Below are positions 44,191-54,530 of a stretch of DNA of 64,000 nucleotides, piece by piece (position 1 is the stretch's first letter; each line of letters starts with the position of its first letter). A program made the position numbers and the translations under genes. Below the pieces are notes generated by a model, which was given only the letters and a program-made list of their open reading frames with translations, did no database searches and was not told where the DNA came from. Source of the DNA: Podarcis cretensis (lineage: Eukaryota); the NCBI GenBank assembly GCA_951804945.1, contig OX638153.1, positions 35,836,001-35,900,000 on the forward strand. Direction: 5' to 3'.

Positions 44191-46141
44191 ACTAGGCACA
44201 CAGTGTGCCAAGGATGCAGAACCTGTGGTCCTCCAGATGTTGCTGAACTCCATTTCCCATCAACCCCACCTAATATGATCAATGGTCAGTGATGAAGGAA
44301 GTTGTAGTCCAGCAATATGCAATATGTTGTAGTAGGTAAAGGGTTAGACTAGGACCAGTGCGTTCCAGGTTTAAATGCCTACTCAGCCACAAAGCTCATT
44401 GGTAAACACTTGTACTGGTCATATTCACTTAACCTATTTTCCAGAGTTGGCGTGAGGCTAAAACAGGTTAGCGGACAGCCATGTGCACCACACTGAGTTG
44501 ATTGGAGAAATAATTGTAGTAAGACAATAAATCAAAGTGTGCTGCCACCAGTGAGATGGTGGTAGATCCTGCTGCCTGGTCCTGTCAGCTGCTTTCTCCC
44601 TTCCCTCACTATTCAGACAAACCATGTCCCTACTAACCACATTGGGTGAATGCATTAGCAGGATGAATTAGGGATGTTTTACAGTGGAAAATTTAATGCC
44701 ATGAATCTGAGTGCAAGGTGGCAACCCTGAGATACTTCCAGGGGTTGAGGCAGTTCTTACTAGACCTCCTTCAAGTCTCTGTCTAGCTTCAGATATTCTT
44801 TCTTTCTTACATCTTTTGCAGGTCACACCTAAAATCCTCCCAAGCCACCTGAGGCTGCTTTGGGCCTAACTTTGTGCAATGTGTAAATGATTTATCTGCC
44901 AACACAAGCTCTTCTCAGCTCGTCCCCAAAGGGGTGCTGTGAGGGTTGTGTTGCCCAGGAGCAATGAACCACAGAGGAGATGGGAAGCTTCCTAGTAAAA
45001 GTAGAGAGGGACGCTGTGCTCACTCAGCAATAAGAAACGGCAACCGAGAAGCTGGTTTTTTGTTGGGATGGCAGCAGAGAACTGTGTGTGACTGAGGCTG
45101 AAACCCAAACTGCAATGGATTTAATGCTGAGGTTACTGGAGCAAGATCGTTCTTAAAATTAAGGGTTTTTCTTAGAAGCTGACATTCGAAAACACACGAA
45201 GCGAAATCGGATTCTGAAGTGACGGGCTATGTTTTTATGGGGGCGGGGGGCGCGGGGGAATCACAGTTAAGTTCCATGAAAACAGTGGTGTGGTGAAATG
45301 CAGAAGCTGACCAAAACTAAAAGTGATACAATAGGAGTGCATCTTCCTGTATTTTGCGTATTTGCTGCTCTTCCTACACTTTGCTCAGCATGTGCCTCAT
45401 CTGATTTCAGGCACAGAACTCATTTATCACTCAGAAATGTCAAACATGCTTGTGTTTGGAGCCAAAATGTAAACAGGGCTCAAGCACTTGGTACAGCCCC
45501 AGTTCTGTTGCGTATGACCACCAGGATAGTCTCGAAACAAACCTAAAAAACTTGTTACCGCTCAAAGCCTAGGGGAGGATTATTTATTGGGAACTAGAAG
45601 CTTGCTACGGTGAAGTATCACTGCCCACTCCAAAAAGATGGCCGATACCTCATAGAAAATAAACAAATAGCAGTGGCGAGTCTAACTCAGAGAAACAAGA
45701 TATCACAACAGTGAAGAAAGAGAGGGAGAGAAAGAGAGAGAGGCCATTAAGAAGAAAGTACCATATTTGTGATTTTAACTATGGGAAAGATCTTGGTACC
45801 AATGGCCCTCCGGCTTATTGCCAACTACCATTCATTCACTCATTATTGCCAACTAAGGAATGAATCAGTAACATTCTAGGAACCTGACTAACACAACTAA
45901 ATTTGGTTAGATGCTTCCAAAACAAGTTAGGGAGCAATCGTAACCCTACCTACCTGGGAATAAGCCCCACTTAACTCAATAGGACTTACTACTCAGTTAG
46001 GATTGCCAACTACATGCAAAGGCATTTGGGTCATATTGATGCTCCTGTTCATCCTTCTCTCCCACTGCGTCTTTTTTCATGACTCTCCTGCATATGTTTA
46101 TAGGCATACATTTCCTGCTTTGTCTCCTGTTAATTTGATAC

Positions 46142-46967
46142 TGTCAGAGCTGCCTCTAGGTCCCAGCTCACAGAGGACCAACGCTAGGCTGTAGTAATGT
46201 ACAAAAGTCTTTATTGAAGTTCAGTTTCCATTTCAAAGCCACAGCGTGCAGCCCTACGTCTTAAACCCTAGATCGGCGAAGTCCCGTCTGAGTCCCCTCC
46301 CCTATGACACCAGTTTAAGATCCTAGCCCTGCTCCACCTTTTACGCTGCTCTCTCCTCCTCTGGGTCCTCCTGCCCGCTGGGGCATTGCCCTTTCTGGAC
46401 TCTTCCGACGCTGAGTCGCTTAGCTCCTCCCCCTCCCTCCGGCGGGCTTTAGGACCCGGTTCCCAATCCTCATTCTCTGCTGTCCCGCGCTCCTGTACAT
46501 TTGAACTTGCCTCTCGCGCCAGCCCAGTGACCTTTCTCCTAACCGTTACACTACTTCGGTCACTGCTTCCCTCTTCCGGGACACTGGCCGGATCTGACCT
46601 CTCCTCCGTTGTCCGACTTTCTGATGGAGGCATGGTCAGCCCTGCCTTATCTTCTCTCCCTGGTGGGGAATGCACTGGCCCCGATCCTTGGGACTCTTCC
46701 CCCCCACTCTGCTCTGGTGGGGAAGCTGGTCCTGATTTCCAGCTACTGCTCTGGGAGTCCCTGCTGCCCCCTTGCTCCTGGGGAGTTCCCCTTGGGAACC
46801 CCCTACCCCTGGCCACTGGCGCCCCCTTCTGTGAATCTTCCGATTCGCTGGATAGGCTCATGGAATCCCTCGGTCCACTATCCTCTTCTCCTACGCTCCC
46901 CTCGGATTCTTCCCCTTCGCTCTCCATCTCCTCTCTTCCCTGTGCCTCTGCTCCTGAGCCCCTGACA
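46142..46967 (-). mobile_element. Solo LTR (Gypsy-like), 826 bp, in RNLS intron 5, sense orientation
   Basis: TGTCAG...CTGACA termini; 5-bp TSD GATAC/GATTC (1 mismatch); AATAAA on the minus strand at 46215-46210 near the 3' end; CpGs retained. Confidence 0.85.
46268..46927 (-). CDS. 219-aa Ser/Glu-rich, C-terminally Arg-rich ORF inside the solo LTR (function unknown)
   Basis: ORF track. The frame is also open for 13 codons upstream of the ATG, back to LTR base 2. The stop lies about 50 nt before the LTR AATAAA. Confidence 0.45.
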   Translation of the reverse strand: MESEGEESEGSVGEEDSGPRDSMSLSSESEDSQKGAPVARGRGFPRGTPQEQGGSRDSQSSSWKSGPASPPEQSGGEESQGSGPVHSPPGREDKAGLTMPPSESRTTEERSDPASVPEEGSSDRSSVTVRRKVTGLAREASSNVQERGTAENEDWEPGPKARRREGEELSDSASEESRKGNAPAGRRTQRRREQRKRWSRARILNWCHRGGDSDGTSPI

Positions 46968-49258
46968 GATTCTTTCCCTTTTCGTGACTGAATTATCTGG
47001 AGCTATTTCTTCTTCTTTCCCATGGTATACCTGCACTCCAGTGGAGGAACATTATGATTTGAGGTGTATGAGTTGATTGGTTTCGGCTGTAATTATTGAT
47101 TGTTATTGTATGCTAATGTTTTATCATTGTAGATGGCTAGAGAACATTGCTATGGGGAAACAGATAAATATTGTAAAAAGAAAAAGTCTGCTCTTCCTTT
47201 CCTCCTTTTCCTTCAGCAGTTACCATATTCACCCCATGGGTTGTGAGCAGTAGATATCTTTGATGTTTTCTAGCCCTGCTGTACCCATGCTAGGCTGTTT
47301 CCCCACACCCCTCTTCTTGGTATAGTTAAAATGTAAGAGAATAAGGCATTCTTTTTCCCCTTTTGATTTTAAAAAGAGTCCTTTCATCCCTTCTTCAGAA
47401 AACAGAAAATAACCTAAGGAGAAAAACTGCAGTTGATCCCCCAATTTCTGATGCAAATTATTCAGAGTGTTAGAGATTTTGCAGAAGTCTTTCCCCTGTA
47501 ACTATCAAACAAACAGCCCTTTCACTGCATTTATAGTCGTCTTTCTGCCAGGGGACCATCATACTACTTGCATTCTGCATAGAGGAAAGTTCTTGGGATA
47601 ATGAAACCTCATGAAGATTTTGCACTGGACTGTTCTAAGTATTTCTGCTCGTGCCCCTGCCATCCGCTTCCTTCCCAGCCCATAGTATCCTTATCTGTTT
47701 GCCTTTCTATCTAGTCAATTCCTTAAACTAGACCTGCTCGAGACAGGTTTCTCAGATTGCACCCTGACTTGCAGGTGATTATTCCATATGAACCTTCCTG
47801 CGGGTTTGTTTCAAGAGCTCCATTGCAATTCTGATCCCAGTTCTACTAGAGCTCACCTTTCAAATAATTGACAGCCTATGGGACCGATGCTGGTGGAAAG
47901 GCAAACAGAAATAAGCAAGTCAGAATTTGCTCAGGAAATAATACCAGAACATGCTGAGTCACTATATGGAAATATATATCAAGAAGCACTGTGCTGTGGC
48001 TCCTCGCTCCATACACAATGACACTGGGAAAAGTCAACTTTGTTGACTTCCAGCACATAAAAAGGACTTCTCCAATCTGGCTGTCACTACTCCATAATAA
48101 AGCTGGGGAGGTGGAGCCTGTAGTGCCTGGGTGCTACTCTGTCCTCAAAGCTGATGTCATCACGAATATTGGCAACAGAGTTTTAGGTTGTCCCTAAAAC
48201 AATCACCTGTTAGCTTGTATTGACTGCTGCTTGCATAGCCAACATGGGCAAGAAGACTGCAAGCCCTTTTGTGACAGTTTACAAATACTGTCACTTGATT
48301 CTAACCAGAAATCCCTCTGGTCAGAAGTCCAGGGTGTATTTAGTAGGGTTGTAGCATTTGGTTAATTAATTGTTTCAGTTGGTATATTCATGTTTTGACT
48401 GGCTAGAAACTTGCTACCCGATGAATTGGGAGGCTGATATTTTAAAATAACTTACAAAAAACTGTTGGTATTAGCTGCTATCTTAGTAGAGAAATTCCCT
48501 CTTGAGCAAAGGATATGTTTTTTTCTACATGGCTTCTGCTGTGACAAATGCTTGCATTGTCCAAAAACAAAACATGTTTTCTATTCTATGATTGGTTTTA
48601 TTCACACAAAAAACCATGCAGATTTGATCAATCAACTAACCATTCAGCTAAAACTCATATAGTTAATCAGCTAGGGTTTATCATTTTTATTGTGTTTTAT
48701 TGTATTTAGGACTCATGTGCTGAAATAAAAAAAAGCAAAGAGACAGGTCAAATAAATTTGAAGAAAGATACAAGGCAAAACAACAACAACAAGTTGGTTT
48801 CCCAAAAGTTCTGATTCTAGCACTTTTGTAGCTACACTGACTGTTTTCAAACCATCCCATTCAAAAATTGTTTCTATGAATTGGCCCACATCTGATATTC
48901 TGTAATGGGGGCTATGAATCTTAAGTTAGGGAAAAATATATTAGCACTGTTGATGTCATACATCTTAAAATATTAATTGCTTTCCATTTTCATTTTATCA
49001 GCTGAAACACAGAAGGATTACAGCACATCAATGAAATCATTTAATCTAATCTCAGTTGAACAGTATTTTTGTTCTGTGCTAATTCACATTTAGAGGTGAA
49101 CCCACCTAATTTACACTTTCTGAAACAATACATGAACCAACAAAACATGCCTATTTCTTTAAAATTCACACTTCTCCAAATTTTCAAGTGCAGTTCTTTG
49201 CCGCAGTGATGTGTACTTAACAATGTACATATTAGTGAAAATGATATAAAAAAGGTTA

Positions 49259-52707: not shown

Positions 52708-53257
52708 CAGAGGTCTCCAACTCAGTGCCCATAGGCACCATTGGGCAAGTTCCCTAGACCCCAAGTGTTCATTTAAAAAATAAATAAAATCTCTAGCTCT
52801 CCTATAAAGGAAGTTGCAGGGCAAATATGTGGGAAACTTTTATGCATTTTCTGTGAAATGAGACTGGTGGTGTGGCTACCTTGTATATTTTTTNNNNNNN
52901 NNNNNNNNNNNNNNNNNNNNNNNNNNNNNNNNNNNNNNNNNNNNNNNNNNNNNNNNNNNNNNNNNNNNNNNNNNNNNNNNNNNNNNNNNNNNNNNNNNNN
53001 NNNNNNNNNNNNNNNNNNNNNNNNNNNNNNNNNNNNNNNNNNNNNNNNNNNNNNNNNNNNNNAGGACATAGCTAACTTCCCATGGAAAGCATAAGGATGT
53101 CAGGGGTGCCCTTCTCTCTAATTTTGAATTTTGCCATGCTCCCTGTGGCAGCCATTTTGTGATATTCCATGCCTCCTCCATGGTAGCCATTTTGTGACTG
53201 GGACTTCCAGCCCTCTTTCAGAATTTGAAATGCTCCCCAAAGGGCTGGCAACCCCTG
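52708..53257. mobile_element. Probable hAT (Charlie-like) non-autonomous element spanning an assembly gap
   Basis: CAGAGGTCTCCAA...CTGGCAACCCCTG termini; degenerate TSD. Confidence 0.5.
52894..53062. other. Assembly gap (169 N)
   Basis: Run of N. Confidence 1.
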
Positions 53258-54394: not shown

Positions 54395-54530
54395 NNNNNN
54401 NNNNNNNNNNNNNNNNNNNNNNNNNNNNNNNNNNNNNNNNNNNNNNNNNNNNNNNNNNNNNNNNNNNNNNNNNNNNNNNNNNNNNNNNNNNNNNNNNNNN
54501 NNNNNNNNNNNNNNNNNNNNNNNNNNNNNN
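54395..54530. other. Assembly gap (136 N)
   Basis: Run of N; the right flank is TCTA-repeat-like. Confidence 1.

Follow-up and report, generated by a model that had tools for sequence, protein, structure and literature searches.

A lizard retrotransposon family whose long terminal repeat appears to encode the end of its integrase, and a subfamily inserted in telomeric repeats

We analyzed a 64,000-nucleotide stretch of the Podarcis cretensis genome (assembly GCA_951804945.1, contig OX638153.1, positions 35,836,001 to 35,900,000; hereafter the window) and, within it, a solo long terminal repeat (LTR) that is open to translation over most of its length. This LTR frame is almost certainly the C-terminal extension of a pol gene, read through the polypurine tract (PPT) into the 3' LTR of full-length elements. 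For the findings as a whole, we lean toward the explanation that a constrained, LTR-encoded integrase tail would steer insertion toward chromosome ends. A sequence-only reading had described an 826-bp TG..CA element, a frame running from LTR base 2 through an ATG at 46927 to a TAG at 46268 with an AATAAA beyond it, and a 219-residue product rich in Ser, Glu, and Gly with a basic C-terminus. The boundaries, the frame, and its translation all stand, with the product (219 aa counted from the ATG) being rich in Arg as well. The 5-bp target-site duplication that it also claimed is present, but in imperfect form, since the two copies flanking the window LTR agree at only four of five positions. The features of the locus are listed below in the numbering of the whole 64-kb window, with the element on the minus strand.

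46142..46967, minus strand: solo LTR of subfamily A, assigned to a Tf1/Sushi-type chromovirus; 826 bp, TGTCAG...CTGACA (complete element, about 6.7 kb)
46268..46966, minus strand: 232 open codons plus TAG, read as the C-terminal part of the pol integrase tail from frame comparison with full-length copies
46925..46927, minus strand: in-frame ATG at codon 14, conserved in subfamilies A to C only
46270-46268, minus strand: stop codon TAG of the LTR frame, as read in the sequence
46307..46372, minus strand: Arg-rich patch ending I/L-L-N-W-C, the most constrained part of the LTR frame (ratio of nonsynonymous to synonymous change, dN/dS or omega, 0.33-0.40)
46314..46319, minus strand: TATA-like CTTAAA within the L-N codons, 30 nt upstream of the self-primer; putative promoter element
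46279..46289, minus strand: self-primer AGACGGGACTT (LTR nt 679-689), able to pair with the 11 nt just downstream of the 5' LTR of full-length elements
46210..46215, minus strand: polyadenylation signal AATAAA, 53 nt past the stop
46968..46972, minus strand: left target-site copy GAATC, from flank comparison
46137..46141, minus strand: right target-site copy GTATC, a 4/5 match to GAATC
46308..46991, plus strand: antisense open frame, 227 codons from stop to stop, not conserved across subfamilies

The LTR family is young and abundant. A search of the assembly gave 1910 candidate LTR matches, the best 40 of which are 99-100% identical, and the exact end motif of subfamilies A to C occurs 3725 times. 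A perfect 5-bp target duplication flanks 22 of the 31 LTR rows compared among related copies. Pfam returned no match for the LTR protein or for the product of the antisense frame.

Full-length copies were found through the purine tract preceding the LTR start (GGGGGGGATGGA followed directly by TGTCAG), and twenty stretches around such sites were extracted. The extracted elements measure about 6.7 kb and carry 5-bp target duplications. Their gag has 377 codons with Retrotrans_gag and zinc knuckle (CCHC) matches in Pfam, and pol lies in the -1 frame overlapping gag, with a GGGAAAC site inside the overlap in subfamily D. The order of pol domains is protease, reverse transcriptase, RNase H, and integrase (PR-RT-RH-IN), followed by a Tf2-type SH3 domain, a degenerate chromodomain, and a tail of about 390 aa. 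The last 232 residues of this tail are the LTR frame, joined across the PPT via ..GGG ATG GAT GTC AGG... The gag gene, the PR-RT-RH-IN order between direct TG..CA LTRs, the PPT, and the 5-bp duplication are those of Ty3/Gypsy elements, which bears out the earlier assignment to a Gypsy-like family; identity as a DNA transposon or miniature inverted-repeat element was rejected because full-length LTR elements exist.

The frame is open from the integrase to the LTR stop in natural copies (L064, L071, L079, L147, L148, and L149). Subfamily D, the youngest, decides the question: 43 of the 150 rows listed belong to open frames 1550-1556 aa long, pol frames of 1550-1558 aa reach the LTR stop in all 18 of the extracted elements, and six mapped elements place 218 codons inside a 784-bp LTR. 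Podarcis muralis proteins in UniRef share the GGMDVRGSG junction and the tail at 55-65% identity. The sequence-only reading had offered either an accessory protein or a pol extension; continuity across the PPT in intact full-length copies favors the extension and leaves a separate accessory protein without support. Counting against continuity, only 13 of the 31 measurable junctions in subfamilies A to C are in frame, while in the other 18 the G-runs are off by one or two bases in either direction; five of 36 had no anchor and were left out, and the faulty G-runs differ in run and in subfamily. Slips of 1-2 nt in G-runs also recur in older A copies (L010-type; LTR nt ~310-330 and the PPT G-runs), where they break the frame, and are nearly absent from D copies. 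Across the PPT G-runs, short-read contigs contain no indel reaching 3%, which hints weakly that the slips in A to C are scattered or assembly errors.

The strand on which the frame lies is poor in T (12% of LTR nt 1-700). In 2000 dinucleotide shuffles of this segment, the longest run of open codons over the sense frames had a median of 104 codons and reached 200 codons in 0.9% and 230 codons in 0.35% of shuffles. The outcome that the sequence-only reading had named as refuting its proposal, stops as frequent as in composition-matched shuffles, did not arise. Of the copies retrieved by DNA search, 37 of 52 in subfamily A and 23 of 31 in subfamily B keep the frame open over 209 codons or more. 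The antisense frame, for which 201 aa had been claimed, is indeed open in the window copy but longer, with 220 codons within the LTR. In three related groups it is closed (median, ~117 codons), and it stays open for no more than 155 codons in subfamily D and 78 in family E. Since it is not conserved across subfamilies, a functional antisense gene was rejected, and the antisense frame is likely a by-product of the sense frame.

We then grouped 126 LTR copies and counted changes between the nine groups of at least two copies, taking expected counts from 2000 permutations in which base, derived base, and CpG context were matched. These permutations replaced a first neutral control (singletons within groups) that was confounded by transition bias. 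The groups of subfamily C were drawn from a protein search, which favors open frames, and the groups are related on the tree, so that the p-values are approximate. In the LTR frame, 95 of 214 changes were synonymous, where the permutations predict 57+-6 (omega, 0.46; p=0.0005, the lowest value that 2000 permutations can give), far from the dN/dS near 1 expected of an unconstrained frame. The value was 0.45 without CpG sites and 0.48 with DNA-selected groups only; the alternative frames +1 and +2 gave 1.50 and 1.18. Omega was 0.11 in the integrase, 0.13 in the chromodomain, and 0.47 in the tail ahead of the LTR. Between A and D, the LTR part differs by a dN of 0.43 and a dS of 1.34, and the LTR tails of the more distant families E and F have pairwise omega values of 0.16-0.47. 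Fixed indels, whose lengths the earlier reading had proposed as a check, measure -3 and -63 within the frame and -1 and -1 past the stop. Changes private to one LTR of a 5'/3' pair gave 1.27 (n=39), as neutral change should. The short blocks SxSESEDSQ, WxSxPxxP, and RKV and the Arg-rich helix are retained despite a dS of >1.3.

Taken on these sequence comparisons, the tail protein is very probably constrained by purifying selection, and we conclude that the constraint is moderate, typical of a linker with short motifs. Several results of the same analysis point the other way. Strict singletons gave an omega of 0.76 (p=0.13); all 5'/3' differences pooled gave 0.61 (p=0.0085), driven by variants seen in other copies; noncoding triplets after the stop gave 0.53 (p=0.045), or 0.68 without CpG (p=0.23); and a first McDonald-Kreitman-type table was not significant (p=0.116). 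In addition, the L-N/C-W codons coincide with the TATA-like box, and some of their conservation may act on DNA.

A protein search with the tail reached two proteins, P0020 and P0022, whose match is confined to the region around the chromodomain. Relatives of these two in the same genome, the E and F families, have LTRs of 405-435 bp and pol proteins of 1333-1354 aa. Their pol crosses the PPT at a D-V-R junction, with 100-109 codons inside the LTR in intact copies, and their tails end in an Arg-rich patch and L-L-C-W over an AT-rich word at the same spacing as CTTAAA. The stop lies seven codons past the self-primer in A through F, whatever the LTR length. The pol-into-LTR layout is clade-wide. 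The E/F LTRs examined (405-435 bp) contain no AATAAA or ATTAAA, unlike those of A to D.

Although A to D have no chromodomain match in Pfam, their chromodomain region aligns column for column with that of E/F proteins carrying PF00385, and also with P0021, which matches HP1 at E=2.6e-8. At what we take to be the HP1 cage positions, A to D have none of the three residues of the aromatic cage and E/F keep only the middle Trp. A chromodomain at the integrase C-terminus, the mark of chromoviruses, is present in degenerate form, and the three cage aromatics given for chromovirus group I in the accessible part of its description (PMC3605345) are lacking. By eye, E/F proteins carry two tandem motifs just after the chromodomain, each consisting of a helix, an acidic linker, and FxGF (F-W-E-E-x-F..acidic..F-x-G-F; L200, L229, L230, L237, and P0020-P0022), and A to D carry a single such motif with a Ser/Thr linker, upstream of the LTR. 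The TND-interacting motif (TIM; the LEDGF IBM; TND, N-terminal domain of TFIIS), as far as the available text of PMC9987994 describes it, is a short helix, an acidic or Ser/Thr linker of 8-16 residues, and FxGF, and it is bound by LEDGF and HRP2. The FxGF motifs, which lie outside the LTR, appear to fit this description, and E/F could possibly be a LEDGF-tethered retrotransposon, in parallel to lentiviruses. Structural searches added little: among solved structures, the chromodomain plus tail (P0016) had one chance match only (E=5.6), the ESM Atlas had no match at 0.9 or above, and AlphaFold, from a five-sequence alignment, gave a mean pLDDT (model confidence) of 37 with the chromodomain unmodelled too and is uninformative on disorder.

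Full-length copies have no tRNA primer site following the 5' LTR. Instead, the 11 nt after it (AAGTCCCGTCT) pair with LTR nt 679-689, exactly so in 11 of the 15 elements whose 5' LTR is proper; in B, D, E, and F, the two sides of this pairing have changed in a compensatory way. The stem is present in both predicted folds, and whole-fold z-scores are not significant. In Tf1, the primer is reportedly the first 11 nt of the RNA. Self-priming marks the Tf1/Sushi group, according to the accessible text of PMC6317226, and by this feature and its structure, our element can be classed as a self-priming Tf1/Sushi-type chromovirus.

The U3/R border (between the 3'-unique and repeated parts of the LTR) and the transcript start likely lie at LTR nt ~679, 20 nt ahead of the stop. 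Because the self-primer places the start there, the frame would lie upstream of the LTR's own start, likely occupying all of U3 and ending seven codons into R. Transcription of a solo LTR would therefore begin at the end of the frame and not before, and solo LTRs probably do not express the frame from their own promoter, retaining it only as a presumed passenger. The full-length RNA would begin at the self-primer in the 5' LTR, so that U3 would be translated only from the copy at the RNA 3' end and would be promoter and coding sequence at once. Four contig sets, presumed to be RNA derived, cover the LTR and internal parts and are uninformative on start, strand, and level.

Two potential start codons accompany the frame. 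The ATG at codon 14 occurs in 122 of 126 A to C copies in a strong Kozak context (G at -3 and +4), and T, L, or I stands there in D and in the Podarcis proteins. The ATG within the PPT is retained in A to D and missing from E/F and from solo LTRs. The sequence-only reading had supposed that solo LTRs scatter ATG-to-polyadenylation mini-genes through the genome; this idea is not supported, as the inferred start lies downstream of the frame and the ATG is absent from D. As a separate observation, GTAAGT directly follows the terminal CA of the 5' LTR in A to D (L061-L077 and L193-L198), a splice-donor-like sequence that overlaps the self-priming site.

Subfamily D, the youngest sister subfamily, stands apart in where it is inserted, a feature that the sequence-only reading had missed. 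Its copies cluster at contig ends, and the stretches in between are (TTAGGG)n. Among 733 D LTR ends, 366 continue into internal sequence and the other 367 are insertion ends, of which 226 are telomeric (118 into TTAGGG and 108 into CCCTAA); the remaining 141 (about 38%) are not followed by perfect repeats. Left junctions gave 107 telomeric matches in the one orientation tested. The telomeric repeat amounts to ~61,800 units, or 0.025% of the assembly, which makes the enrichment of D ~2500-fold. In telomeric repeats, 198 of the 200 rows listed have GTTAG or the complementary CTAAC as the duplication. The target preference of 63 A to C solo LTRs ranks this register first among six (74%), so that the register itself calls for no special explanation; the location does. 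Insertion into the repeat at a fixed register is found in subfamily D only, and D shows neither the exclusive telomeric location nor the non-LTR mechanism of telomere-specific elements.

Of the 226 telomeric junctions, 110 lie on 17 of the 19 large contigs (C1-C19), including interstitial arrays on C2, C3, and C9; the others are on small contigs, possibly duplicating ends. We extracted 12 of the 19 telomeric D elements in five regions, leaving out one cut by a contig end, one spanning an unfetched base, and five missing exact patterns. They differ pairwise by 6-41 single-nucleotide polymorphisms (SNPs), mostly have private variants in both LTRs, and intermix on the tree with six non-telomeric copies, as expected for independent insertions in both orientations. 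No TTAGGG occurs within the D sequence, and homology-driven insertion was rejected for that reason. The chromosome ends consist of 6.5-kb D elements alternating, in both orientations, with (TTAGGG)n tracts of ~12 to >700 units; such mixed arrays occupy, for example, C3:1-53000, C1:28000-75000, C1:141597000-141635579, C14:15000-30000, and the end of C4 (L211, L212, and L243-L262). Large degenerate interstitial telomeric arrays with D insertions lie at C2:4.616-4.648 Mb, C3:121.83-121.95 Mb, and C9:78.83-78.86 Mb (L279-L284), and these interstitial arrays also contain one or more older solo LTRs of C type, inserted in the same GTTAG register.

A weaker bias is visible in the other long-tailed subfamilies. 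On contig C1, 24 of the first 100 A to C ends fall in the first 0.34 Mb versus 0 of the first 100 E/F ends. Within 0.5 Mb of a contig end, we counted 43 of 218 A to C search matches versus 5 of 150 from E/F (p=1e-6), after contigs C18 and C19, small contigs, and partner LTRs had been removed; most of this enrichment comes from C (36/140). In the one orientation tested, none of 1773 E/F ends abuts TTAGGG. There are two readings: a telomere bias common to the long-tail clade, with old array insertions disappearing as telomeres turn over, or strict array targeting that is new in D.

The mechanism that we propose is as follows. Protease processing would leave the tail on the integrase, where this long and likely disordered segment could act as an arm for nuclear import and chromatin tethering, with an NLS (nuclear localization signal)-like basic end. 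The FxGF motif ahead of the LTR, together with the Ser/acidic blocks and the terminal Arg-rich helix inside it, would bind host chromatin or telomere proteins; these short motifs may substitute for a chromodomain without an aromatic cage, and tethering of the integration complex would direct insertion toward chromosome ends. From these analyses, we regard steering by the tail as evenly poised between true and false, and steering by the LTR-encoded part itself as possible but doubtful. A bolder form is equally tentative, namely, that the U3 promoter became the coding sequence of an integrase arm binding telomeric chromatin, such as a shelterin protein, and that D is the first integrase-using retroelement known to prefer (TTAGGG)n, forming mixed arrays at most chromosome ends. 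Several points weigh against the explanation as a whole. Only ~2 of 3725 A to C ends, the group of the window copy, are at telomeric repeats; subfamily A is only mildly enriched near ends (3/40; p=0.012); some subtelomeric copies may be segmental duplicates, as one right flank was found twice; the transcript start is predicted from the self-primer; and the integrase core, the chromodomain, or the tail ahead of the LTR could do the targeting instead.

In an unlikely alternative, the tail is translated but is a mere NLS-bearing linker, open since a stop near the polyadenylation site avoids a long 3' untranslated region and nonsense-mediated decay, and telomere targeting is left either to the integrase core or chromodomain or to the pre-LTR motif. 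The moderate constraint (omega, ~0.45) with tolerated in-frame indels, the fixed distance between self-primer and stop from A to F, and the rarity of tailed A to C elements in telomeric repeats would all follow. However, amino acid changes are depleted and not stops alone, short blocks survive a dS of >1.3, and end enrichment tracks the long-tail clade. The telomeric location of D might instead reflect amplification or retention (recombination between ends, tolerance, or assembly duplication) rather than targeted integration. Small unplaced contigs hold over half of the telomeric junctions, and C3 begins with a run of seven D copies pointing the same way. We consider this improbable, given the near-equal orientations (118:108) with exact GTTAG/CTAAC duplications, the copy-specific SNPs common to both LTRs, a tree that mixes the 12 extracted copies with non-telomeric ones, the spread over 17 large contigs and interstitial arrays, the lack of TTAGGG in D for homologous pairing, and the absence of E/F from the repeats in the orientation tested.

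Returning to the frame itself, HIV nef and MMTV sag provide examples of coding sequence overlapping the U3 of a 3' LTR, but these are separate accessory genes with their own RNAs, whereas the frame here is fused to the integrase. A nef/sag-like protein made in addition, from the codon 14 ATG, the PPT ATG, or a spliced RNA, with solo LTRs as mini-genes, would be in keeping with the Kozak context and the conservation of the codon 14 ATG in A to C, the PPT ATG in A to D, the donor-like GTAAGT, and the polyadenylation signal 53 nt past the stop. It is very improbable, as the start codon is not conserved as an accessory gene's own would be (one ATG is lost in D and the Podarcis proteins, the other is missing from E/F and solo LTRs), the inferred transcript start is downstream, and the frame is continuous with pol. 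Least credible of all is a frame open by chance on a T-poor strand in young copies. The shuffle median of 104 codons and the long antisense frames in A, B, and C show how far composition can go, but the shuffle probability (P=0.0035), the frame-specific synonymous excess, and the continuity with pol in families with far-apart integrase cores leave it hardly any room, and the selection tests have already largely refuted it.

Some further observations concern the family and the window. Homolog searches gave only Podarcis-named or unnamed proteins, which is weak evidence on host range. Public Podarcis annotations list tail frames as stand-alone hypothetical proteins (P0004, P0005, P0017, P0023, and P0037), and P0043, a phospholipid-transporting ATPase of Podarcis muralis in UniRef, contains a stretch 85% identical to part of an E-family query, either through exonization or as a gene-prediction artifact. 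A shorter D form, likely a non-autonomous deletion lineage, recurs with LTR ends 3528-3530 bp apart versus ~5745 (for example, C1:3704629-3708177, C2:126614561-126618108, and C3:66198984-66202531). The window holds no further piece of these element families and has two N stretches, at 52894-53062 and 54395-54530.

Comparisons with known systems extend to the accessible parts of the sources cited. With the Tf1/Sushi group (the vertebrate V-clade with Sushi-ichi and Amn-ichi/ni/san), our element shares the CCHC gag, the -1 overlap with GGGAAAC, the PR-RT-RH-IN order, the Tf2-type SH3 domain, the chromodomain, the 5-bp duplication, and self-priming in place of a tRNA primer site (PMC6317226). It differs in the ~390-aa tail past the chromodomain, with 210-232 codons filling U3, in the lack of cage aromatics in A to D, and in the presence of D in telomere repeats. 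In plants, the pol frame of CRM group A and of Beta elements Beetle7 and Bingo1-4 and 7 extends into the 3' LTR, where CRM group A encodes the CR motif, a putative centromere-targeting domain (PMC3059260 and PMC3605345). Here the pol frame likewise enters the 3' LTR, but the host is an animal, priming is by self-priming rather than tRNA-Met, the chromodomain lies upstream of the PPT, Pfam gives no CR-motif match, and the bias is toward telomeres rather than centromeres. On these sequence features, the element is like CRM group A in layout without being a member. A pol frame entering the 3' LTR is thus already known from plant chromoviruses; as far as the cited texts go, what is new is its occurrence in an animal, self-priming clade with the whole of U3 coding.

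Telomere-related targeting by an LTR element is known from yeast Ty5, in which a phosphorylation-regulated motif at the integrase C-terminus tethers the element to telomeric heterochromatin via Sir4 (PMC4700185); tethering by an integrase tail is, in our case, only a proposal. Ty5 is a Ty1/copia element in silent chromatin near telomeres, whereas D enters the (TTAGGG)n array itself, and in the available text Ty5's targeting domain is not described as LTR encoded (PMC4700185). Insertion into telomeric repeats is also reported for TRAS/SART, MoTeR, Zepp, GilM/GilT, Athena, and Tx1_Acar (PMC10088271), the last from Anolis and thus also in a lizard. These invaders are non-LTR (long interspersed element-type) or Penelope-like elements, and Retand and Ty5 are subtelomeric LTR elements (PMC10088271 and PMC12477314), whereas D is an LTR element with an integrase, inserted in both orientations and with ~38% of its ends elsewhere. 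In the portions of the literature searched, we found no LTR element in TTAGGG arrays, nor this family; Repbase reports and subscription journals were outside this scope, and an earlier description is possible.

These results would account for thousands of open, protein-like frames in the solo LTRs of lizards, which gene prediction already lists as hypothetical proteins, as integrase tails. They suggest a vertebrate counterpart of the centromeric retrotransposons of plants, where one sequence may serve as both promoter and targeting domain. More than 200 young LTR insertions break telomeric arrays, on 17 of 19 large contigs, a finding relevant to the structure and stability of telomeres in these lizards. 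Finally, the existence of close subfamilies with and without telomere preference would make a change of integrase target directly testable.

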